This document shows positions 2,591 to 50,307 of a stretch of 64,000 nt of DNA, one piece after another. The DNA comes from Escherichia phage ST2: the sequence record OM982647. One strand, 5' to 3'. Made by a program: the position numbers and the translations under genes. The notes below the pieces were generated by a model that did not search any database, was not told the origin of the DNA, and saw nothing but the letters and a program-made list of their open reading frames with translations. Numbering within the stretch: position 1 is the stretch's first letter; every line of letters starts with the position of its first letter.

Positions 2591-4275
2591 TAGATTCGTT
2601 CCCATTGATGAGTGATATCGCCACCGATTGGACGATAAGAAACGCCAGTTTCTTTATCAGTTAGTACCCATTTACCAGGATTTTTTGTAATCAGAGTAGC
2701 CGTTACAGGTTCTGCTACGTCATAACTAATAGAGCCGTCCTGAAGTACACGGCCCATGTTACGTAATTGCTTAGTCAGAAGTTCCATACCTTTATAATAT
2801 GCGGCTACCGCTTTAAGTGGATTATTCTTGAAATAACCACCTAATGCAATCCAGATAATTGCCACTGCCAAATGATGATACTCGTTAAACGAACTCATCT
2901 TTCCATATTTGTAAACTAATGGATTGATGTTAATAGTCACATTACAAGTTGTTTCATCAATAGTAAACTGTCCCCAGGTCGGATTAGCGTTGAATTCATC
3001 ATAACCAGAAACAGCATAAAGCACTTTAGCTTCATCATACAATTTTGGCCCGTAAATCTTGGTTTCGCCAAAATATCCACGAGGGTCGATAAACTTGACT
3101 TCACCGTTATCAGTAATCATAGTATTACTGAAGTTCGGGTCACCATGAATAACAGAGTACTGACCCTGAGAACGGTTATGATAACGAATAAGGTGTTCTA
3201 AAGCTTGTTTCAGCATTGGCTTCAGACGCCCAATCTTAGTGTAGTTCACGTGTGTGATTTTACCAAATGAATCAATCAATGGTTGAATGCTTTCACAACG
3301 ATCAATAACTTTCGTATAGAATTCTTTAGTGAAATCACGACGAACAGTTTCAGGACTTACAAAATAAGTGTCTGTGCTGAATTTCAGTGCATCTAAAATT
3401 GCATCAACAATTTGTGGACGAGCAAGACTTGATTTGGATTTAATATATTCAAATGCCGGCTTACCTTTAATGCGTTCCATTTCAAAGTTATTTTCATTAA
3501 CAGAAACTAACTGAGGGACTGAATCTGATTTCACTTTAAGATACCATGAAATCTCATCTTTTTGAAGAGCTCGACCCTGTTCGGTTAATGCGAATTTAGT
3601 TACAGTTTCTTCACCAATTTCAACTGCATTAAAACTACGATTAAGTTCACGAACTTCATGAGCTTTTTCAAGTTTAGGCATATCACCTAAATCAATTAGA
3701 TTCATAAGCTCTGATTTATTGAATGCGCTGCCGTAAAGGAATTCTACGAAATCACGTCCTTTGCAGTATTCATGAATTTCCTCATCGGTAGAACCCATAT
3801 AGAATTCCCAGTCTTTGAACTGATAAATTCCTACAACATTACCACCTGTTGAACCTACGTTAATGATATTTTCACCGTCGAAATTATATCGACATTCGTC
3901 ACCCTTAACATAGATTGCGTTAACATTCCAAGACCATGAACCAAAATCAGGAATAATATCACACCAGTTAACAATTACATTATGGCCGTCTAAATCTTTG
4001 TGTAATTTAGCAAGAGCATAAGCAGATCCATACGCTTCATCAACTGTGCGAATAGTCACATTGAACCCTTCTTGCTCACAATAAGCTCGAACAGTTTCAG
4101 CAAATTTTGAATGAACTACTACAATAATTTCATCTGCGCCAAGGTCAGAATAAATTGTATACAAATTGCTCAGAATAGTGTCTTGTTTATAGTTAACAAG
4201 CACCTTAGGAATATGATGCGTTATTGGATATAAACGAGTTGCCAATCCAGCACCAAGAATAACAGCTTTTTTCAT
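2590..4275 (-). CDS. bifunctional sugar-1-phosphate nucleotidyltransferase / APH-fold anomeric sugar kinase
   Basis: 561 aa; N-terminal MKKAVILGAGLATRL (NTP-transferase G-x-G-x-R); C-terminal HGDPNFSNTMI ... KFIDPRG (kinase catalytic loop and metal-binding motif). Confidence 0.7.
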   Translation of the reverse strand: MKKAVILGAGLATRLYPITHHIPKVLVNYKQDTILSNLYTIYSDLGADEIIVVVHSKFAETVRAYCEQEGFNVTIRTVDEAYGSAYALAKLHKDLDGHNVIVNWCDIIPDFGSWSWNVNAIYVKGDECRYNFDGENIINVGSTGGNVVGIYQFKDWEFYMGSTDEEIHEYCKGRDFVEFLYGSAFNKSELMNLIDLGDMPKLEKAHEVRELNRSFNAVEIGEETVTKFALTEQGRALQKDEISWYLKVKSDSVPQLVSVNENNFEMERIKGKPAFEYIKSKSSLARPQIVDAILDALKFSTDTYFVSPETVRRDFTKEFYTKVIDRCESIQPLIDSFGKITHVNYTKIGRLKPMLKQALEHLIRYHNRSQGQYSVIHGDPNFSNTMITDNGEVKFIDPRGYFGETKIYGPKLYDEAKVLYAVSGYDEFNANPTWGQFTIDETTCNVTININPLVYKYGKMSSFNEYHHLAVAIIWIALGGYFKNNPLKAVAAYYKGMELLTKQLRNMGRVLQDGSISYDVAEPVTATLITKNPGKWVLTDKETGVSYRPIGGDITHQWERI

Positions 4276-4316
4276 GTTGAAGTCCTCATTGGTAAGTAGG
4301 AGTATTGTACACTATT

Positions 4317-4460
4317 CTAGTTAAAGCATTCATACTTTGCTTGTAGTCCAATCATAATCCATCCAATTACAAGTGTTGGAATCATTACTGGAGCCGTTAA
4401 GCTCCAGTAGATAGTCATGACAAACATCAATAGTAAAAGTCCTATTGTTATTGATTTCAT
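4317..4460 (-). CDS. small hydrophobic membrane peptide (47 aa), not in ORF track
   Basis: ATG at 4458-4460 overlaps stop of SIS gene (ATGA); translation MKSITIGLLLLMFVMTIYWSLTAPVMIPTLVIGWIMIGLQAKYECFN; occupies imm position. Confidence 0.35.
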   Translation of the reverse strand: MKSITIGLLLLMFVMTIYWSLTAPVMIPTLVIGWIMIGLQAKYECFN

Positions 4461-5092
4461 TGTTCGCCTCGTAACATGGCACCTAGTGCACCGCCAGGGT
4501 GGAACTTAAGGAAGTCATTAGAGGTAAATCCACGTTCAGACGAAAGGTTGATAGCAAACGTATCGATAAGCGCTAACAACAATGTAGTGGACATAGTCGG
4601 AGCTAAAGAGTTCTCGTCAACTTCTACCGCGATACCGGTACAGAACGTATAATCAAAAAGAGCTTCGTATTCTTGTGGAATGTCAGGGTTACAATGTAAC
4701 AGAATCTGTTTAACCTGAGGACGAATCATACGAAGATGCTTAGCCACGCCTATCATTTCTTCAGTTTTACCAGAACGACTAATATGAATCAACACATCAT
4801 TAGGCGCAATGAATCCTGCATCACCGTGAGAATAATGCCCGGTGTTCAAGTACATACTCGGGATACCGAGTGAAGCAAATGTCTCAGAAGCTTTAGTTGC
4901 AATATTAGCATTCTTACCAACACCTGTAATAATTACTCGGCTTTCATAATTACTAAGTCCCGGGCGTCGAAGAGTTTCTAGAATAGCATTATAACGAGCA
5001 GGGTTTTGACTAATTACTTTGGCCATAGCGGCCAAAGAAGAAGCTTGTTTTATGATTGCGTCAATAGCGATAGTAATAGGAGTAGTTTTCAT
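4457..5092 (-). CDS. SIS-domain sugar-phosphate isomerase (arabinose-5-phosphate isomerase KdsD/GutQ-like, no CBS domains)
   Basis: 211 aa; SIS motifs VIITGVGKNANIA, HISRSGKT, C-terminal RGFTSNDFLKFHPGGALG typical of KdsD. Confidence 0.7.
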   Translation of the reverse strand: MKTTPITIAIDAIIKQASSLAAMAKVISQNPARYNAILETLRRPGLSNYESRVIITGVGKNANIATKASETFASLGIPSMYLNTGHYSHGDAGFIAPNDVLIHISRSGKTEEMIGVAKHLRMIRPQVKQILLHCNPDIPQEYEALFDYTFCTGIAVEVDENSLAPTMSTTLLLALIDTFAINLSSERGFTSNDFLKFHPGGALGAMLRGEQ

Positions 5093-5132: not shown

Positions 5133-7844
5133 TCAAAAATCGAACATATCGAACAGAGATGCTTTCTTCTCGTAATCGAGTTTCGCTGCTGATGTGAATC
5201 CTTCAAGTGGTTTAATAAATGTCTTCTCAAGGAGAACAGTGTAGTCCATCCAATGAAGTACATCGTCTTTAATTAAATCTGTGATTTCAGTACCAGAAGG
5301 CCATGCGATACATTTATCACCGAATGGGTTTCCTTCGCGTAAAGGCAGAACATATACTTTTTCACCTTCTACAACTTGTGGAGCATCGATATTACCTTTG
5401 ATAGCTCGGTTATATGTCAGAATTCCACGAATATGGAACGGGCATTTGGGACCAGGGAATCCACCAACGTCATATTTAGCAATGTTATTCGCAGAAGATA
5501 CCGACGCGATGCTAATATAATTCAATTGACGGAATTCTTTTTCAAACTCTTTAAAATATTCTTGTAATGATTCTTCACCTTCTTGAAGCATACGACGAAT
5601 ACATTCTTTAAGAGCTTTCTGTACTGCTTTAGGGGTCGAAGATTTCTGAGTCTCTAGACCCATGATTTTGAGTTTAGGCTCAGCGTAACGAGTACCTTCC
5701 ATATCCCACACGTTTAATGCATAACGTTTCTTACCGGTCCAGAATCCACCAATACCTTTAGAACCGAGCGGAGGACCAGCGATAGCTTCTCGGTCCATGA
5801 ACATTAAGTGTTGTTTATTGTTCATGTATTCACACATTTCACGGAAACCTCTATCAATAGCTGGTTCCATACGTTCACGTGCAAACTTATCTAAGAAGTC
5901 TACCCAATGGTTAGTATCACGGAATTTAGATTCGCCAACCTTATCAATAATTTTATCTGCAGATACATAAATGGAGTCTGTATCACCATATAGAACGAAA
6001 GCTTCGCCTTCTGTACCACAAACTTCATTCAGATATTCATTAACTTTACGTTCAATCCACTGTAAAGCCATTTGACCAAATGTTGTGATTGCAGTTGCAT
6101 TACGCAAATCGTAATAACGGAACCAAACGTTTCCAAGTGCACCATAAAGAGAGTTGATGAGCAATTTACGGTTAATCTGTGCAGTCATACCTGCAACTTC
6201 AGTACGTTGAGCTCTAAACAACATTTCATTAAGAGATTTAGCAGACAACTTTTTAATCTTTTCTTTAATCTCGTCAGTGAAGTCGAAACGATAATCAACA
6301 TCTAATGGTTCATCAACAGAAAGATTAGGATTATGCAAGGCCTCTTTAATTATTTCACCATTACGTTGAGCTGCAAGCATGTAACCTTTATGTTCTTTAC
6401 GTTGATTAAAGACCTTAGTGATTTCAGTTGGAACTACACCATCACGGTCTTTATAATACATCATGCCGTTAGGAGAACAACTGTACACATCAGAAGGACG
6501 TTCAGCAACAGCGTTAATATAATCATGCAGCGGAGCTACTTTAAACGTTCCTGCTATTGTTTCCGGGCTAATATTCACTTGGCGAATAATACTTGGATAC
6601 AGAGATGTAAGGTCGAAACTCATTACATATTTGTATCGATTTGGAATAGGTTCCTTAACAAAAGCGCCAGGATAAGGTTGAACCGGGTGAGAACGACCTT
6701 GTGGAATCACCTTGTTCTGCTCTTTAAGGCTATTAAAAATAATAGCATCCCATGTTTTAATTGGACTGAACACAGATTGAATCTGAATTTTAGCATAATA
6801 ACCCATGTCCAAACTCAAGTTGATGAACTGACGCTTAGCATCGATTTGCAATACACGATACACGTCGATAATGTTATAAGAAATATATCGTTGGTGATTG
6901 CTTTCACGAAGCTTAGAAATAGGGCCGTCATATTTCAGTTTACCGACATTCAATTCAAATTCTGAAATGTAATCCAGAGAATACGACGGTTGGTTTGTGA
7001 AAGAGAATTTTTTGTAAAGGTCAATGTAATCAAGAACAGAGATACCGAACAATGTAATGATTTCACGAGAACCATACATGTTTTCGATAACTTTAACACG
7101 AGTTTTACGATGTGGTGACAACCGTTTCGCAGTAGATTCGCCAAAAATATTCTTGATTCTGTTATACACATATGGAATATCAAATGACTCAACGTTCCAT
7201 CCAGTCAAAATGACAGGAGTTTTCTGTTGCCAGAAGTTGAGATATTCCATCAATAATTCTTTTTCATTATCAAACGGCATATAAACGATTTTGTCGATAA
7301 TTTCGGATGGAACTTCATCACCACCTTGTTCTTGAAGCTTAGCCGCAATTTCGATAGACCATTCTTCTACATTACCATATGGAGAATTCAATAGATCAAA
7401 TACGTAGAACCTGTCGTCAATTGAGTCATAATGGGTGATAGCATCAATAGGATGTTTTGCTTGTGACGGCTCAGGGAACCCGTCCGGAGATGTTACTTCG
7501 ATGTCGAAGTTAGCCACACGAATTTTTGTATGGTCGTATTTGATTTCATAGTTATAAGTGTCAGACAAATACGCCAATTTAAAATCGTCCATGCCAAGTG
7601 CTTCAAGTCCGATATCTTCCATGCGTTTAATCCATTGGGAGGCATCACGCATATTAGCGAACAACTTACGAGTACACGGTTTACCGTAGATATCGAAATA
7701 TTTCGTAGCCTGACTTTCTGGACAATGAGCAAACAGTGATGGTTTATATTCTACTTCACGAGTACGTTCACGGCCATTAGAATCGATGTAACGTTCAAAA
7801 ATTGAATCACCAATCTGTTCAACCGTTAAGTAAAATTCTTTCAT
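5133..7844 (-). CDS. 43: DNA polymerase (B family) gp43
   Basis: 903 aa; exonuclease motif ANFDIEV and polymerase motif YGDTDS; T4 gp43 size and position. Confidence 0.97.
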   Translation of the reverse strand: MKEFYLTVEQIGDSIFERYIDSNGRERTREVEYKPSLFAHCPESQATKYFDIYGKPCTRKLFANMRDASQWIKRMEDIGLEALGMDDFKLAYLSDTYNYEIKYDHTKIRVANFDIEVTSPDGFPEPSQAKHPIDAITHYDSIDDRFYVFDLLNSPYGNVEEWSIEIAAKLQEQGGDEVPSEIIDKIVYMPFDNEKELLMEYLNFWQQKTPVILTGWNVESFDIPYVYNRIKNIFGESTAKRLSPHRKTRVKVIENMYGSREIITLFGISVLDYIDLYKKFSFTNQPSYSLDYISEFELNVGKLKYDGPISKLRESNHQRYISYNIIDVYRVLQIDAKRQFINLSLDMGYYAKIQIQSVFSPIKTWDAIIFNSLKEQNKVIPQGRSHPVQPYPGAFVKEPIPNRYKYVMSFDLTSLYPSIIRQVNISPETIAGTFKVAPLHDYINAVAERPSDVYSCSPNGMMYYKDRDGVVPTEITKVFNQRKEHKGYMLAAQRNGEIIKEALHNPNLSVDEPLDVDYRFDFTDEIKEKIKKLSAKSLNEMLFRAQRTEVAGMTAQINRKLLINSLYGALGNVWFRYYDLRNATAITTFGQMALQWIERKVNEYLNEVCGTEGEAFVLYGDTDSIYVSADKIIDKVGESKFRDTNHWVDFLDKFARERMEPAIDRGFREMCEYMNNKQHLMFMDREAIAGPPLGSKGIGGFWTGKKRYALNVWDMEGTRYAEPKLKIMGLETQKSSTPKAVQKALKECIRRMLQEGEESLQEYFKEFEKEFRQLNYISIASVSSANNIAKYDVGGFPGPKCPFHIRGILTYNRAIKGNIDAPQVVEGEKVYVLPLREGNPFGDKCIAWPSGTEITDLIKDDVLHWMDYTVLLEKTFIKPLEGFTSAAKLDYEKKASLFDMFDF

Positions 7845-7891
7845 TTAATTTCCTTTAGACGAGTTATTGTCTTTTGTTTGTTGATGAACTT

Positions 7892-7919
7892 ATTATACTC
7901 CAAATGGGACCGAAGTCCC
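7892..7919 (-). promoter_or_regulatory. stem-loop (GGGACTTCGGTCCC) followed by TATAAT-like -10 upstream of gene 43; regA terminator / gene 43 promoter composite
   Basis: Hairpin 7906-7919 sits 7 nt after regA stop; TATAAT (minus) at 7892-7897, about 48 nt before gene 43 ATG. Confidence 0.4.
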
Positions 7920-7925
7920 ATTGCT

Positions 7926-8294
7926 TTAATTACCAATTGTATATTTTGCTTTCAAAGTCCAGTCATCTTTCTGTTTAAAAGAGATAACTCGGAAGTTATT
8001 AGTCAGGCTAAATAGATCTTCACGAGCAGAGTCTTCAATAACAATCAATCCCCAGTCTTCAAGCAACTGAGCAATCGAATCGCGTCGTTGGTAGTCTTCA
8101 CCATCGATATCAACCTGACGTCCGTCCATACGCAACATTTCTTTAAAGTGGACGATGTAGTATTTACCTTGCTTTTGGAGGATATGACAAGACTGGTAAA
8201 GGACTTTATCCTTATTATTAGCGATCCCCATACGGGTCAAAGTCTCTTTGACTTTCAGAAAATCTTCTGGGTTCTTCAATTTAATTTCGATCAT
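7926..8294 (-). CDS. regA: translational repressor RegA
   Basis: Matches T4 RegA from MIEIKLK (ATG 8292-8294); upstream in-frame Met likely not used. Confidence 0.9.
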   Translation of the reverse strand: MIEIKLKNPEDFLKVKETLTRMGIANNKDKVLYQSCHILQKQGKYYIVHFKEMLRMDGRQVDIDGEDYQRRDSIAQLLEDWGLIVIEDSAREDLFSLTNNFRVISFKQKDDWTLKAKYTIGN

Positions 8295-8296
8295 TT

Positions 8297-8860
8297 TTAC
8301 CATTCCAATGCTAATTTTTTAAATTGTTTTTGTTCTTTCACATTTTTTGTAACTTCTTTGAGAAACTCATCAGTGACCATGGCCTTCAGTTCTTTAAGGA
8401 CTATTGGCAACTTGTTATTTTTTTCAAGGAGCCGCTTATACTCGGTAGCATCATTCATGTTGATTGTGTAACGTTTCATCAACAGTTTGATAACTAGTAA
8501 CTCTGAAGTGTCTTCGACTAGTTTAGCCCATTTAGAGAATCGACGACCACGCGGAATTGCCGCCATCATGTAGTTGAAGTGCGCTTCATCACTTAATTCA
8601 GAACCGACTAAGTTCATCATGTAAACAGCTGGCATACATTCCGGGAACTGGGATAATGAGTTCTCAACCATAAATTTTGAGTAGTCGACCTGAGCAATTA
8701 ACATAGATTTCTTTTCATTAATAGCATTAATGATTTTAAAGAATTCATTCTCAGGTTTTTCTTTAAACATGTCAGCACATTTTTGAATCGCATCAGCGTC
8801 ATTAGACTTCCATGCGATTTGGTGCTCGTTAAGTTGGACTTCATCATCAAATAAGTTCAT
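8297..8860 (-). CDS. 62: clamp loader small subunit gp62
   Basis: 187 aa, T4 gp62-like sequence and position. Confidence 0.93.
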
Positions 8861-8861
8861 A

Positions 8862-9824
8862 TTATTTCCAAGTCAGTTCGCAGGTCAGTTGAAGAAGCAT
8901 ATACATAACATGTAATTCAATATTACTTGCTAATCCATGAAACTTATTATTTTCGCCTGCAATTTCGTAAAGCGAAATAATACTTTTACCGGGTGCAACT
9001 TGGTCATAACATTCTGAAACTAATTTATCGATGAACCATGAATAATCTGCAGCATATTTTGGAGCTAATGCACGAAGCTGTTTGATATCTTTGTTCTTCA
9101 TTGCTTCGATAACATCAGAGACTGTGCCACGGTCATTAGTTACGATAGACAGAATACCTGCATCAAGAACACCTTTAGACGAGTACTGGTCTAATTGTCC
9201 AATTGTACGACGAAAGTCCGGGAAGTTCTTTTTAACCAGAGCTGCAACAACTTTCATATCAGCGATTTCGATATTTTCATTCTTACAGATTTCAACCATA
9301 CGGTGAATCATTTTCTTCATCATCGAGATTTTATCTTCTTCGGTTGGACGACCGAATTCGATAACTCGACAACGACTACGTAACGGTTCGATAATTCCAT
9401 CGATGTTGTTGGCAGTAATAATAATAGAACAGTTACTAGAGAATTCTTCCATAAACGTACGAAGGTGGCGTTGTGATTCGGCGAGGCCACTACGGTCAAA
9501 TTCATCGATAACGATAACTTTCGGCTTGCCTTCCATTGAGACTGAACGAGCGAATGCAGTTAACGGACCGCGTACAAAATCAATCTTACAATCAGAACCG
9601 TTGACGAACATCATTTCGGCATTGATATCATTACATAATGCTTTTGCTACGGTTGTTTTACCTGTGCCAGGAGAAGGAGAGTGCAAAATAATATGAGGAA
9701 GTTTTCCTTTAGATACTAAAGACTTGAATGTTTCATGGTCATACGCAGGCAGAATACATTCGTCAATGGAAGAAGGACGATATTTCTGTTCTAGAATGTG
9801 TTCTTTGGAATTGATAGTAATCAT
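8862..9824 (-). CDS. 44: clamp loader large subunit gp44 (AAA+)
   Basis: 320 aa; Walker [11 protein letters not shown]; T4 order 45-44-62-regA-43. Confidence 0.95.
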
Positions 9825-40988: not shown

Positions 40989-41229
40989 CTCGGTCCCATG
41001 ATTTGGCCATCAATTCGGACATAAATTCTTCAATGCGCGTTTCTTTAGACGGACTTTCACTATTAGAGACCGCAAGTTTGTAATCTGCAATAGGACGGAA
41101 CAAATCAAGGTCCATATTAAGATCGTCTTTGATTTTTTCTTCTGACACATCTTTATCGTATGTGTACAGATAACTATCACATGATTCTGATTTAATGTAA
41201 ATTGCTATACTCATCTCAAATTCCTGCAT
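40978..41229 (-). CDS. hypothetical protein
   Basis: 83 aa acidic ORF. Confidence 0.5.
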   Translation of the reverse strand: MQEFEMSIAIYIKSESCDSYLYTYDKDVSEEKIKDDLNMDLDLFRPIADYKLAVSNSESPSKETRIEEFMSELMAKSWDRDDE

Positions 41230-41702
41230 TCGGTAATAAAACGTTCAACTTCATTATTCTTGGCTTTTATCTTGTCTTTATGTTCTTGTAAACTACTTTT
41301 AATAAGATTAATAATGATGGCAGCGGTACCACCGCCAATGATGCCACCAACAACACTTATGATACTAGATGCTAATAAGATAGCAATAATATCAACAAAA
41401 CCGAAAGAACTCACCTTAGTACTAAAAAACCACACTGACGGTACAAATATAATCCATCCTGTTATCCATTGGCACTTATTGAAAAACTTTTCAAGCTCAG
41501 CTTGAGTTGTTCGTATTACTTCATCGATAGGTTGATATCCGTTAATGTATCTGTTCACAATAATACCTGCTGGCTGGTCGATTTTAAATTCTTGGCAAAT
41601 ATGTTTCACTAAGTAGGATGGACATCCTGTCCAATCTACTGAATAGTATGAAATACCTTCATTGCCATCGTCTATATTAGACCAATATGTTTTGTTAATC
41701 AT
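41211..41702 (-). CDS. hypothetical membrane protein
   Basis: 163 aa; two hydrophobic helices with Gly-rich segment. Confidence 0.5.
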   Translation of the reverse strand: MINKTYWSNIDDGNEGISYYSVDWTGCPSYLVKHICQEFKIDQPAGIIVNRYINGYQPIDEVIRTTQAELEKFFNKCQWITGWIIFVPSVWFFSTKVSSFGFVDIIAILLASSIISVVGGIIGGGTAAIIINLIKSSLQEHKDKIKAKNNEVERFITECRNLR

Positions 41703-42389: not shown

Positions 42390-42695
42390 TTATTTTCCTC
42401 GACATTCTTTAATGAAATTTTCTAGATTGGTAGATTCAATAGCTTTTTTACGAGCTTCTGCGTGTTCTTCTTCAGACAATTTACGTTTATAATTGACCCA
42501 GACATTATGGTCTAAACCAGTTGTGGCATATAATATCAAAGCTCCGACGAATAATAAAAACGGCGATAAAAATATACAACCAGGAACACCATCCATACTG
42601 TAAGCCTTTTGTAATACTGCAACAGAAAGAGTTGCGTAAAAAAGTGATGCAAATATTGTAAAAAGACCAATTCGGTTGGTTTCGCCTAATTTCAT
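42390..42695 (-). CDS. hypothetical membrane protein
   Basis: 101 aa; two hydrophobic helices. Confidence 0.5.
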   Translation of the reverse strand: MKLGETNRIGLFTIFASLFYATLSVAVLQKAYSMDGVPGCIFLSPFLLFVGALILYATTGLDHNVWVNYKRKLSEEEHAEARKKAIESTNLENFIKECRGK

Positions 42696-42766: not shown

Positions 42767-43723
42767 TTATTTGAAAGGTTTTACTATATGGAAATTTTGT
42801 TTGAAACGTTTTACGTAATCGTCGTGTCCTAAGCTTTGGTACATACTTACAACTTTGCTGTAGTTTTCCCAGGCGTATTCACGGAACCAACCGGAGGTGA
42901 TGCTTGTGCAGACTTTTTCTAATGCCATCATGAAACTGGCTTCAGGGTTAATTTCAAAGTTATTAGGAATCTGAGAACGTTCTAACGCTAGTACACATGA
43001 TTCTTCGTATACACCGGCCAATTTGACCATTTCCGGTAATGATTCGAACTTCTCGCGTGAGGTCATGACTTCAGAACCATCTTTCATATAAAATGTATAC
43101 GCTGGGCGGTCTGTTAGTGCAATGGCTTCATGAATAGTATCATGGTCATATGTATAGATGTCATCTTTAAAGAACGCACTTTTAGAAGTGTCAAGAACCG
43201 GGTGAGCATAGTTCAAAGTTTCTTTCTGGCGTTTCAGCATAATTTCAGTAAGTTCATCGTTCAGTGTAACACCTTTACCACGAAGATACTGAATATGGTT
43301 CGTAGTCTTTAAAAAGAATGGATTATTTTTCTTGAAACGATGAGACATCTTAATTGCAAGGCACATCTCAGGAGTTGCCCAGTAAAACCCGTTCAAACGG
43401 TCTTTAGACAAATTTTTCTCGGCGTATTTTAAAAGGTCATAAGAAGACGTGAAATCTTCAGGAGTGAGTTCACCGACTAATTCACGGACATTAGTGATTG
43501 CCGGAACAATATATGCTTCAAAATGAGTTTCGCGCCCATTATGGAAGCATTTGAAAACTTGGACATCAGGGTTATCTTGGTGAACATATACACCCATCAT
43601 TTGATTTTTGAATGCATTCCAAGAACCTTGGTCCGCAATAAAGTCCCAATCGCTATTTTTGATAGCGCTAGAATCAATAAGACCATGATAGTGAAGTGCA
43701 CGAGAACCAATAACTAACATCAT
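42767..43723 (-). CDS. hypothetical protein, possible nucleotidyltransferase fold
   Basis: 318 aa; IGSRALHYHG...SDWDF resembles GS-x-DxD pattern. Confidence 0.45.
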   Translation of the reverse strand: MMLVIGSRALHYHGLIDSSAIKNSDWDFIADQGSWNAFKNQMMGVYVHQDNPDVQVFKCFHNGRETHFEAYIVPAITNVRELVGELTPEDFTSSYDLLKYAEKNLSKDRLNGFYWATPEMCLAIKMSHRFKKNNPFFLKTTNHIQYLRGKGVTLNDELTEIMLKRQKETLNYAHPVLDTSKSAFFKDDIYTYDHDTIHEAIALTDRPAYTFYMKDGSEVMTSREKFESLPEMVKLAGVYEESCVLALERSQIPNNFEINPEASFMMALEKVCTSITSGWFREYAWENYSKVVSMYQSLGHDDYVKRFKQNFHIVKPFK

Positions 43724-44010: not shown

Positions 44011-44052
44011 GATAGGACTACTATAACATAGCCCTATCTTGTTGTAAACTGT
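44011..44052 (-). promoter_or_regulatory. early promoter/stem-loop cassette (near-identical copy B)
   Basis: Same about 40-bp element as 42703-42752 and 51769-51812. Confidence 0.5.
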
Positions 44053-44053
44053 T

Positions 44054-44251
44054 TTAGCAAGAATAACTAGATGATACCCAGCCTTGAACAGTAATGCTAT
44101 TATTAGATAATGAGATTGCGTTCTGGAGATTCAGACCTGCGTTATCTTCAATCCATAATGTAACTTCTTCGCGTTCTTCTGTTGCAATTTGGAACAGGTT
44201 TTCTAGAGCAGCTACTGCGGTACGTACAGCACAATCTAATTCACGAGACAT
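44054..44251 (-). CDS. small protein, paralog family with C-terminal GWVSSS..C motif
   Basis: 65 aa ending QGWVSSSYSC. Confidence 0.5.
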   Translation of the reverse strand: MSRELDCAVRTAVAALENLFQIATEEREEVTLWIEDNAGLNLQNAISLSNNSITVQGWVSSSYSC

Positions 44252-44260
44252 ATGGTTTCC

Positions 44261-44533
44261 TTAGCAAGTGTGAGAAGATGCAACCCAACCGCCATCTTCA
44301 AGGCTCAGGTTGTAGTCGTATTGGTAAACGTCAGCCCATTCAGCATAGCCGTTTTTTGTACAACGTTCAAGATCGGCTTTAAGATGTCCGGGCGAATGAT
44401 AGGTTCCACCCATACCATAAGCTGGATACAAGTCGAATGTTGTGTTTTGTTTATCAGCAATTTCTTTGGCAGCATCAATAGCTTCATAGATTTTTGCTAC
44501 GGCTTCAGCCAGTTCGGTTTGTTCTTTAGACAT
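44261..44533 (-). CDS. small protein, paralog family with C-terminal GWVASS..C motif
   Basis: 90 aa ending DGGWVASSHTC. Confidence 0.55.
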   Translation of the reverse strand: MSKEQTELAEAVAKIYEAIDAAKEIADKQNTTFDLYPAYGMGGTYHSPGHLKADLERCTKNGYAEWADVYQYDYNLSLEDGGWVASSHTC

Positions 44534-44542
44534 AATGATTCC

Positions 44543-44848
44543 TTAGCACAATGCAGAAGACGAAACCCAAGCACCTTCAGTAATAATGTAACCATTACCT
44601 TCACGCTTAACATCGCCGCCATTATTTTCAATTTCATCTTTCATCCACTGGGATACGATTTCACCCTTAGGATAATAAGTACGTCCGCTACCATAATCAC
44701 CTACAGAAAATGATACGGCATATTGGTCTGCGATCTTTGTTGCTTCTTCTTCGATACGTTCAGCTTGATTCAGAAGTTTATAAATTGCATCTGAAGCGGA
44801 TTTGGCATCATTAAACTCTGGTACTTTAATTTCAATAATCTTACTCAT
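44543..44848 (-). CDS. small protein, paralog family with C-terminal AWVSSS..C motif
   Basis: 101 aa ending EGAWVSSSALC. Confidence 0.55.
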   Translation of the reverse strand: MSKIIEIKVPEFNDAKSASDAIYKLLNQAERIEEEATKIADQYAVSFSVGDYGSGRTYYPKGEIVSQWMKDEIENNGGDVKREGNGYIITEGAWVSSSALC

Positions 44849-45204
44849 TTTCTACATTCCTTAATAAAGTTTTCGATTGTTTCATTTTCACGTCTAGCTA
44901 AGAGTTCATTATAACTAATCATTTGAGAAGCGTAAACCTTTTTATTTTTCTTATTATGGTTTATAAAATCGTAGTAAAAATAGACTACAGTACAAAAGGA
45001 TGCGATGGATGCAAAGGCTTGGGTATACCGTAAGTCCTGCCATTGGTCTGTGAATCCACCGGTATTCCCTATAAATCCTAACACAACGCCGTCAATAAGA
45101 AATCCAACTAATCCAAAGGCAAATCCCATGCCAATACTCATAATAAAAATTAGAATGTTCTCACCAAGAGACGGCCATACAGTTAAGAGTTGAGGCTTTT
45201 GCAT
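44845..45204 (-). CDS. hypothetical membrane protein
   Basis: 119 aa; multiple hydrophobic helices. Confidence 0.5.
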   Translation of the reverse strand: MQKPQLLTVWPSLGENILIFIMSIGMGFAFGLVGFLIDGVVLGFIGNTGGFTDQWQDLRYTQAFASIASFCTVVYFYYDFINHNKKNKKVYASQMISYNELLARRENETIENFIKECRK

Positions 45205-45608
45205 CTTATTTCCTTAACGAATTCCATAGCTTCTTCATATTCATATTTTTTAACAGCTTCATCATACTGAGCTTGGGCTTTTGCGCACTGAACTTTCCAT
45301 TCTCTTAATCGAGCTCTATAATGACGTCCTTGGTACCAATATCCCACCCAGTTAATAGGCATTAATAAAAATGGCACAATAAACGACCCGGCTATAATAA
45401 GTAAAAACACTGCATCAGACGATATAACTTCACTAGAATCTAAAATAGCTCCTATAATCATAAAGATTAAAAATGCTAAAGCTAAAATAGGGCCAAATAG
45501 TACTTCGTTTGGGATTAATTTACGTTTGTATTCGTATGCCCAGGGCTTAATTGGCATGTACAGGGTTGGCTTTGACATATTCTCTACATTCCATAATAAA
45601 TTGCTCAA
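45183..45608 (-). CDS. hypothetical membrane protein
   Basis: 141 aa; two hydrophobic helices. Confidence 0.5.
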   Translation of the reverse strand: MSNLLWNVENMSKPTLYMPIKPWAYEYKRKLIPNEVLFGPILALAFLIFMIIGAILDSSEVISSDAVFLLIIAGSFIVPFLLMPINWVGYWYQGRHYRARLREWKVQCAKAQAQYDEAVKKYEYEEAMEFVKEIRCKSLNS

Positions 45609-46170
45609 GGATTAAATTGTTAGTGAAATTAGGACTAACAACCATAGTTTCATAAAGCGCATCAATAGCACTTAAAGCATCAACTCTTTTAAGCAAAGGC
45701 TTGCCTTCATACATAGTTTCAGAATCGACGATTAACGTAAAGTAATATTTTTTATTATCGACTAGAACTTCTGTGTCGATATAAAACATATTAGACCTCA
45801 GAAGCTTATCTCTAAAACCATAATAATCTTCTGAACGTTCGCTGATATATTCCCATTCAGTGTTTAAACAACAAACAGACCACGTAGGAGCAACGAAATC
45901 AGTGAATCTAATATCATGGTCTGCAACTAGTTTAGCAATAGCTCCGATATCATGAATCATAATACCTGGGGCTAATAAAGATTTTCTGCTATGGCTAGCC
46001 GTTTTCTCAGTAGTCTCATAAGAAGACGACCAGTACCATTTACGTCCAGTTGCAACATATCGTAATGAATCAACTAAAGACGTAGGTGGATTTACCTTAT
46101 CTCGGAACTCTTCGAACATTGAGTCAATATCATTATTTTGGTTTCGCATGTTAACTCCTTTATTATCCAA
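45547..46170 (-). CDS. hypothetical protein
   Basis: 207 aa; exact start uncertain. Confidence 0.5.
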   Translation of the reverse strand: MDNKGVNMRNQNNDIDSMFEEFRDKVNPPTSLVDSLRYVATGRKWYWSSSYETTEKTASHSRKSLLAPGIMIHDIGAIAKLVADHDIRFTDFVAPTWSVCCLNTEWEYISERSEDYYGFRDKLLRSNMFYIDTEVLVDNKKYYFTLIVDSETMYEGKPLLKRVDALSAIDALYETMVVSPNFTNNLILEQFIMECREYVKANPVHAN

Positions 46171-50073: not shown

Positions 50074-50149
50074 TGGTCGAGACAGTAGGGATCGAACCTA
50101 CGACCTAGGACTTAGAAGGTCCTTGCTCTTCCTTCTGAGCTATGCCTCG
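50074..50149 (-). tRNA. tRNA-Arg (anticodon UCU)
   Basis: Manual cloverleaf: acceptor CGAGGCA/TGTCTCG, D-arm GCTC..GAGC, anticodon loop CTTCTAA, T-arm GTAGGTTCGATCCCTAC, encoded CCA. Confidence 0.8.
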
Positions 50150-50153
50150 TATT

Positions 50154-50228
50154 TGGCGGACGTGCATGGATTCGAACCATGGGCCAATTGATTAACAGTC
50201 AACTGCTCTACCACTGAGCTACACATCC
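50154..50228 (-). tRNA. tRNA-Asn (anticodon GUU)
   Basis: Acceptor GGATGTG/CACGTCC, anticodon loop CTGTTAA, T-arm CCATGGTTCGAATCCATG, encoded CCA. Confidence 0.8.
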
Positions 50229-50232
50229 AAAT

Positions 50233-50307
50233 TGGTGGCCCTGGCTGGTTTCGATCCAGCTACCTATCAGTTATGAGCTGACAGCTCTCCCATTGAGCTA
50301 CAGGGCC
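50233..50307 (-). tRNA. tRNA with CAU anticodon (Met or Ile)
   Basis: Acceptor GGCCCTG/CAGGGCC, anticodon loop CTCATAA, T-arm GCTGGATCGAAACCAGC, encoded CCA. Confidence 0.75.

Follow-up and report, generated by a model that had tools for sequence, protein, structure and literature searches.

Three small genes that lie side by side on the minus strand of Escherichia phage ST2 (sequence record OM982647) encode proteins of 101, 90 and 65 aa, referred to here as paralogs A, B and C, each of which ends in a tryptophan, a serine pair and a terminal cysteine. The question that this locus raises is what such a tail is for, and with which partner, if any, the proteins that carry it might act. The stretch that was analysed (hereafter, the window) comprises 64,000 nucleotides and shares approximately 98% identity with Mosigvirus phages of the RB69 type. 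RB69ORF136c-139c are the counterparts of the trio, which belongs to a block inserted between the homologs of e.2 and e.3; at the syntenic position of T4, e.2 and e.3 overlap directly and the block is absent. Indeed, both of our HMMs found nothing in 76 kb of T4 that included this site. That the block is missing from this site in T4, the model phage, may be one of the reasons why it has been so little studied. The first-pass annotation knew of no characterised T4 protein family with this C-terminus; no characterised family with it was found, but the genome is that of an RB69-like Mosigvirus and not of T4.

The ORF calls and pairwise BLASTP comparisons (A vs. B, E=4e-6; B vs. C, E=5e-4; A vs. 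C, E=1e-3) bear out the initial description of three adjacent minus-strand paralogs. All three ORFs share the same reading frame, and each intergenic gap, first given as about 10 nt, measures exactly 9 nt and reads TAAGGAAnCAT, followed by the next ATG; thus, within the trio, a Shine-Dalgarno sequence (AAGGA) overlaps the preceding stop codon. The start codon of paralog A, in turn, overlaps the stop codon of the upstream e.3 homolog (ATGA). The stop-adjacent C-termini read ...EGAWVSSSALC (A), ...DGGWVASSHTC (B) and ...VQGWVSSSYSC (C), so the strictly C-terminal cysteine motif reported earlier stands in all three, with the tail of A reading GAWVSSSALC. Apart from these three, none of the 164 ORFs that the window contains with a length of 60 aa or more ends in cysteine, and a six-frame scan of the 64 kb yielded no tail motif outside the trio. 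The YGxGxTY core, which had been ascribed to the two longer copies only, was confirmed in A and B, is nearly invariant among their homologs, and is lacking in C. The N-terminal helix that had been proposed is likewise predicted with high confidence in the AF2 model of paralog A (residues 15-43; pLDDT 89.8), where the tail appears partly ordered, with a strand at 93-96 and a turn at 97-100. Promoter-like sites lie on both sides of the trio (Table 1), although the promoter and terminator calls are consensus matches and the scan overall did not exceed the expectation from shuffled sequence. In a homologous record, a T4-type middle promoter is annotated at the position of the site 5' of the trio, and the site on the 3' side is a possible early promoter for the 83-aa gene and the 318-aa gene downstream. 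The latter site is overlapped by a 10-bp hairpin (GATAGGGCTA...TAGTCCTATC) located between the 65-aa and 83-aa genes, which is annotated as a rho-independent terminator in a related record, yet the U-run is absent after the hairpin.

Table 1. Features of the trio and its surroundings; positions are those of the window.
Feature	Position	Strand	Remarks
Paralog A, 101 aa, RB69ORF139c type	44543..44848	minus	PHROG 899, E=3.5e-22; family HMM, E=2e-23; AF2 pLDDT 89.8
Paralog B, 90 aa	44261..44533	minus	PHROG 899, E=3.1e-19; own family HMM, E=1e-23
Paralog C, 65 aa	44054..44251	minus	PHROG 4882, E=1.7e-36; own family HMM, E=6e-4
Tail motif, paralog A: W94-V-S-S-S-A-L-C101	44546..44569	minus	Family-wide invariant W, S, S, C
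Tail motif, paralog B: W83-V-A-S-S-H-T-C90	44264..44287	minus	Family-wide invariant W, S, S, C
Tail motif, paralog C: W58-V-S-S-S-Y-S-C65	44057..44080	minus	Family-wide invariant W, S, S, C
Promoter-like TTTACA-17-TATAGT with TG	44020..44048	minus	Just 3' of the trio; consensus scan
Promoter-like TTTACG-17-TATAAT	44908..44936	minus	Within the e.3 homolog, 5' of the trio; consensus scan
Hairpin, 10 bp	44012..44053	minus	
Intervening gene, 83 aa	43752..44003	minus	PHROG 3723, unknown function; between trio and partner gene
Partner gene, 318-aa nucleotidyltransferase-like protein	42767..43723	minus	N-terminal DUF7277, C-terminal helical DUF7275
Gene with second cysteine motif	41211..41702	minus	
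Gene with second cysteine motif	42390..42695	minus	
Gene with second cysteine motif	44845..45204	minus	
Gene with second cysteine motif	45183..45608	minus	
Gene with second cysteine motif	45547..46170	minus	
tRNA-Arg/Asn/Met cluster	50074..50307		

Existing classifications say little about these proteins. By HMM score, A and B fall into PHROG 899 and C into PHROG 4882, both of 'unknown function', whereas the 318-aa protein belongs to PHROG 2141 and to Pfam DUF7275/DUF7277. These bins are uncharacterised, PHROG splits off the 65-aa paralog, and neither the tail motif nor the linkage described below is recorded in them. Comparison of the trio with Pfam, NCBIfam, PADLOC and PDB sequences gave no meaningful match, the weak Pfam scores of the 101-aa protein (Peptidase_S78_2, E=0.006; E217_Gp32, E=0.012) being below the cut-offs. 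In the sequence records, the trio and the 318-aa protein carry no annotation beyond 'hypothetical protein' or DUF, and the literature search returned no paper that mentions DUF7275, DUF7277, the RB69 ORF names or a phage MenT-like module.

The family is nonetheless large. When 1.84 billion cluster representatives were searched with a profile, 573 clusters (50% identity) scored at E<=1e-3, and tblastn found the 101-aa type, which is the most widespread subtype in the family, in 395 phage records from many genera. Word-indexed searches added relatives in Dhakavirus, Aeromonas phages and metagenomic contigs of approx. 360-370 kb, all of which have kept the tail; homologs of paralog B occur in jumbo-phage contigs of approx. 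370 kb. Conservation of the motif in homologs was the test by which the initial observation was to stand or fall, and the motif proved to be kept: among the best 146 of the 573 cluster representatives, 136 end exactly in cysteine and a further eight extend a single residue beyond it. Among the 136, tryptophan at -8, serine at -5 and cysteine at -1 occur without exception (136/136 each) and serine at -4 almost so (133/136), whereas position -6 is occupied by serine (92), alanine (29) or proline (13); glycine is usual at -9 and -10. Since a few members carry one to three residues past the cysteine, its free carboxylate is not essential. Outside the tail, sequence identity between members falls to about 27%, and it is this divergence of the bodies next to an invariant tail that makes the tail the hallmark of the family. 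Its members can be described as acidic, cytoplasmic proteins of about 40-170 aa with a long N-terminal helix, a small beta-sheet and the tail W-x-[S/A/P]-S-S-x-x-C. Their median pI is 4.4, and the pI is below 5 in 90% of them vs. 28% of neighbouring ORFs; 73 of the 162 unique members contain a single cysteine.

The order of the subtypes (101>90>65) is preserved across genera, and thus the duplications must be old and each copy must have been maintained. Together with conservation at the protein level down to about 27% identity, the ordered paralog groups show that the trio consists of real genes. Sequence comparison assigns the three to a large family confined to phages, within which they are paralogs that diverged long ago. 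Disrupted copies were also seen. For example, in the RB69 reference (NC_004928, 69737-70040), the 101-aa gene is broken into two ORFs, ORF139c (71 aa) and ORF138c, and in phage mar005P1 the 90-aa paralog (protein P0018) is frameshifted to 75 aa and has lost its tail; these cases reflect either sequencing errors or the dispensability of single paralogs.

The observation that is key to the interpretation of the trio was absent from the first-pass annotation and concerns the gene for the 318-aa protein, which begins 330 nt beyond the end of the trio on the same strand, so that the trio lies upstream of it. The linkage was surveyed from both sides. Starting from the enzyme, 80 viral-contig loci were collected with a DUF7275 alignment; family members, identified by HMM or motif, were present in 72 of them, and four more had degenerate W..SS..C-terminal ORFs directly upstream (76/80), leaving four core-clade loci without family members. 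All 181 members at the surveyed loci are encoded on the strand of the enzyme gene, a count that is inflated by the long co-directional early gene blocks of T4-like phages, and 180 of them lie upstream and one downstream. Co-directional early blocks do not explain this 180:1 bias, nor do they explain linkage across phage families. There are one to six members per locus, at a median distance of 880 nt from the start codon of the enzyme gene. Starting from the tail, a DNA pattern that is independent of the enzyme (GWx[S/A]SSxxC-TAA) gave 46 matches, of which 34 were family members; the enzyme gene was found downstream in 22 of 22 informative loci, the other 12 having too little sequence downstream, and there were no counterexamples.

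The same arrangement recurs in unrelated phage groups, namely Mosigvirus, Dhakavirus, jumbo contigs of approx. 370 kb, Phapecoctavirus, Otagovirus, Ralstonia RSP15 and Acinetobacter Acj9. Four members precede the enzyme gene in Dhakavirus, four with the tail in Otagovirus phiPsa374 and three in Ralstonia phage RSP15, and the order of member(s) followed by enzyme is also seen in Phapecoctavirus phiWec190 and Acinetobacter phage Acj9. On one metagenomic contig of approx. 370 kb, which also carries the T4-type RNA-repair genes Rnl1 and Pnkp, two tandem members stand before the DUF7275 gene. Among 185,579 bacterial and archaeal species genomes (one per species), the module is virtually absent: only five loci were found, all on MAG contigs, and three of them again have members upstream. 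The module is thus essentially phage-only. The dependence is asymmetric, as the enzyme is also found without the small proteins: in Gordonia, Streptomyces, Brevibacillus and Vibrio phages, the distant DUF7275 homologs stand without any family member close by. Because of these homologs and the four core-clade loci that lack the family, the enzyme must have another substrate, at least there. The 83-aa gene that separates the trio from the enzyme gene is not kept in the module beyond close relatives, other phages carrying different intervening genes, and its membership in the module is therefore uncertain. The genes just 3' of the enzyme vary as well (Acj9, 6783-9437; phiWec190, 8224-9027; RSP15, 6006-7028) and include PRPP synthetase with nicotinate phosphoribosyltransferase, a CobB-like NAD-dependent deacylase and an RNA ligase. 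These nucleotide, NAD and RNA-repair functions may or may not be related to the module.

The partner itself is a widespread protein: it forms over 2,200 clusters at 90% identity and is matched in 733 phage records. It carries the signature of pol-beta nucleotidyltransferases (G6 S7, D25xD27 and E69), which is invariant in 35 aligned homologs that are 46-75% identical to the window protein. In the helical half, K125, H128, H174, H194, D195, H198, C243, C272 and a SITSG.FR segment are invariant in the same 35 homologs. The enzyme has the minimal nucleotidyltransferase fold of the MenT type, with MenT1 as its best fold match and TM1012, JHP933 and LnuA next; an independent Foldseek search also placed MenT1 first (probability 1.00, 182 columns). 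The C-terminal approx. 170 residues, i.e., the helical DUF7275, gave no structural match. Searches of NCBIfam, PADLOC and PDB sequences returned nothing meaningful for the enzyme, and in Pfam only DUF7275 and DUF7277 were matched, with no DUF1814/AbiEii hit even at E<=5 over the 35 homologs. With respect to motifs I-III of the MenT/AbiEii toxins (hG[GS]; [DE]h[DE]h; h[DE]h), G6-S7, D25-x-D27 and E69 are the candidate residues, and the invariant K125...R129 stretch (KMSHR) might perhaps represent the DUF1814-specific motif IV. Given the invariant G6, S7, D25, D27 and E69 and the predicted nucleotidyltransferase fold, the enzyme is very probably active. In the window, a tRNA-Arg/Asn/Met cluster lies about 5.2 kb from the module, which is not tight enough to count as evidence of linkage to tRNA genes. 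In Gordonia phage Lozinak, a distant DUF7275 homolog (3809-4600) lies approx. 1.2 kb from a tRNA cluster (from 5850). Taken together, the tRNA genes near these two loci give a weak hint that the role of the enzyme may be connected with tRNA.

The genomic linkage shows that the small proteins and the downstream nucleotidyltransferase form a coupled module, a conclusion that we hold with considerable confidence. The first-pass annotation had suggested that the terminal cysteine serves as a covalent adduct, a metal site or a recognition tag, and each of these is consistent with the results; however, the near-obligate linkage to a nucleotidyltransferase gene favours a recognition or modification tag for the enzyme over a free-standing metal site. 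It is most likely that the trio comprises cognate partners of the enzyme that act via the tail, either as clients that are modified or as regulators similar to MenA1. In the reading that we prefer, the tail would be the handle by which the enzyme recognises diversified client proteins, and one of the invariant serines in the tail would receive a nucleotide (NMP) from the enzyme. The terminal cysteine might aid docking, e.g., by completing a metal site with the invariant cysteines and histidines of the enzyme, and the variable bodies of the paralogs would reach different host or phage targets in early infection. The client reading is favoured because three invariant nucleophiles (Ser, Ser, Cys) and a tryptophan are borne on diverged bodies, and because multiple old paralogs are combined with a one-way dependence. 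Indeed, an invariant tail, diverged bodies and ordered paralog groups are what one would expect if a single enzyme acted on several clients. We infer the physical interaction through the tail, the site and chemistry of the modification, and the targets; taken as a whole, with all of its steps, the mechanism is a tentative one and has slightly less than an even chance of being correct.

Nucleotidyltransferase-fold enzymes are known to nucleotidylate protein hydroxyls, as GlnD does on PII, GlnE on glutamine synthetase and MntA on HepT. The MenT fold, for its part, phosphorylates Thr/Ser residues of its own (PMC11375011). By analogy with these pairs, the phage module may also join an enzyme of this fold to a protein partner with conserved hydroxyls, but in the phage proteins the conserved site is the C-terminal Ser-Ser-x-x-Cys tail. 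A Tyr-rich hairpin, Y-G-x-G-x-T-Y, is conserved in the paralogs as well. Database-wide searches of Pfam, NCBIfam and PDB sequences found no relation to enzymes of the GlnD/MntA/GlnE type.

Several points count against the client reading. The loci in which the enzyme stands without the family, and the members with residues past the cysteine, are among them. Moreover, the prediction shows a partly ordered tail rather than a free peptide. Finally, MenT1 modifies tRNA and not protein, and the small protein encoded upstream of it is an inhibitor, which favours a different view: the acidic proteins may bind the nucleotidyltransferase and block, time or retarget nucleotidyl transfer to RNA (the tRNA 3' end), the long helix and/or the cysteine tail being inserted into the active site and the paralogs themselves staying unmodified. 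On this view, phages would carry their own counterpart of the MenAT1 or AbiE toxin-antitoxin pair. MenT toxins extend tRNAs at the 3' end by adding nucleotides, and MenT1 is blocked by MenA1, a 68-aa long-helix protein whose gene lies directly upstream (PMC10435456). MenA antitoxins also induce auto-phosphorylation of the toxin (PMC11375011). An inhibitor or adaptor role agrees with the fold match and the gene order as well as with the helix and acidity of the small proteins, whereas the number of paralogs speaks against it, and neither in sequence nor in fold does the trio resemble any known MenA/AbiEi (COG5340) antitoxin. There are further differences from MenAT1 of M. tuberculosis and AbiEi/AbiEii. 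The phage enzyme has no DUF1814/AbiEii Pfam match and possesses the extra helical DUF7275 of approx. 170 aa; the phage small proteins are unrelated to MenA1/AbiEi, occur as one to six paralogs and bear the invariant W-x-S-S-S-x-x-C tail; and the module resides in lytic phages rather than in bacterial chromosomes. We consider an inhibitor or adaptor role somewhat less likely than the client reading.

A more far-reaching version of tail modification is that a MenT-fold nucleotidyltransferase fused to a Cys/His-rich helical domain covalently modifies the invariant Ser-Ser-x-x-Cys tails of an entire family of small effectors in a phage-specific manner, either by nucleotidylation or by nucleotidylation-driven dehydration with closure of a thioether ring. 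Such a modification would arm or switch the effectors in early infection and would amount to novel post-translational chemistry and to a new class of phage effectors; we consider this version unlikely.

It could also be argued that the small proteins are independent effectors, i.e., binders of host or anti-phage defence components (e.g., nucleic-acid mimics) whose tail provides their own metal site or an oligomerisation element, with the enzyme as a co-inherited and co-regulated neighbour in a related but separate role. Small acidic products of the early region are typical of phage counter-defence genes, the enzyme is present without the small proteins in some loci, and both the variable number of paralogs and the disruption of single ones in RB69 and mar005P1 suggest accessory, partly redundant roles. 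However, the linkage is too tight and too wide for hitch-hiking (22/22 and 72-76/80), and the upstream orientation is fixed while the surrounding genes differ. Moreover, a self-contained metal site normally needs more than one Cys/His, and nearly half of the unique members are the single-cysteine proteins mentioned above (73/162). Independent action thus appears improbable.

A further possibility borrows from ribosomally synthesised peptides (RiPPs): the tail serine would be AMPylated by the enzyme, rather than phosphorylated or glutamylated, and then eliminated to dehydroalanine, to which the cysteine would add, giving an S-x-x-C thioether ring on a folded protein that is lanthionine-like or, if decarboxylated, AviCys-like. 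Several lanthionine and AviCys rings (nisin ring B, epidermin) are closed across an S-x-x-C spacing, and Ser(-4) in 133/136 and Cys(-1) in 136/136 give exactly this spacing at the C-terminus, as in lanthipeptide/AviCys precursors. Tandem, diversified 'precursor' genes with one shared element, followed by a single enzyme gene, recall multi-precursor loci such as those of prochlorosins, and the invariant Cys243, Cys272 and several histidines of the helical domain could hold a thiol-activating metal. Nonetheless, this is the least probable of the readings by far, since no LanB/C, LanM, LanKC/L or HFCD decarboxylase (LanD) domain was found in the enzyme, the scanned neighbours or the annotated neighbourhoods; the proteins, of 65-170 aa, are predicted to be folded and have no leader/core organisation, their conserved element being C-terminal instead of an N-terminal leader; some members have residues past the cysteine or shifted serine positions; and dehydration driven by a nucleotidyltransferase, for which we know of no precedent, is speculation.

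A nucleotidyltransferase with a small cognate protein is a known kind of system; what is new is the small-protein family, its cysteine tail, its multiplicity and the phage setting. With at least 573 clusters at 50% identity in the family, and both partners found widely among T4-like, jumbo, Phapecoctavirus, Otagovirus and other phages that infect Gram-negative bacteria, the strict linkage provides hundreds of early genes now listed as 'hypothetical' with a simple hypothesis. Should the enzyme act on tRNA as MenT does, phages would carry a toxin-like enzyme together with its own controllers, which would be relevant to the takeover of translation and to tRNA-targeting defence and counter-defence. 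If, instead, the tails are modified as in the client reading, this would represent a new protein modification. Under either outcome, the invariant eight-residue tail is an experimental target that can easily be mutated.

Several labels that might be transferred to the trio from other records were considered and rejected. A Dhakavirus homolog from phage ESCO10 is named 'inhibitor of prohead protease', but T4 Inh belongs to PHROG 1051 and not 899 and has no such tail. The product names in that record (GenBank OM386655, vB_EcoM_ESCO10) have slipped relative to the genes and are misleading; for example, 'head outer capsid protein' stands at an ORF of 117 aa, 'inhibitor of prohead protease' at one of 97 aa, and 'baseplate hub subunit' at the DUF7275 gene. 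The 'sulfurtransferase' label in related records applies to the e.4 homolog and not to the trio, and it has no Pfam support. The trio does not match the combination of C-terminal Gly-Gly and beta-grasp fold of ubiquitin-like or sulfur-carrier proteins (ThiS/MoaD type). Nor are these likely to be T4 internal proteins, as by inspection their N-termini show no MKTYQEFIAE-like capsid-targeting sequence and are variable among homologs.

A second cysteine motif, situated near the C-terminus, is present in predicted membrane proteins that flank the trio, namely the e.3, e.4 and e.5 homologs and two others, with the endings ...ENFIKECRGK, ...ENFIKECRK, ...EFVKEIRCKSLNS, ...QFIMECREYVKANPVHAN and ...RFITECRNLR. 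Synonymous sites differ among these genes, and thus the motif is conserved at the protein level.
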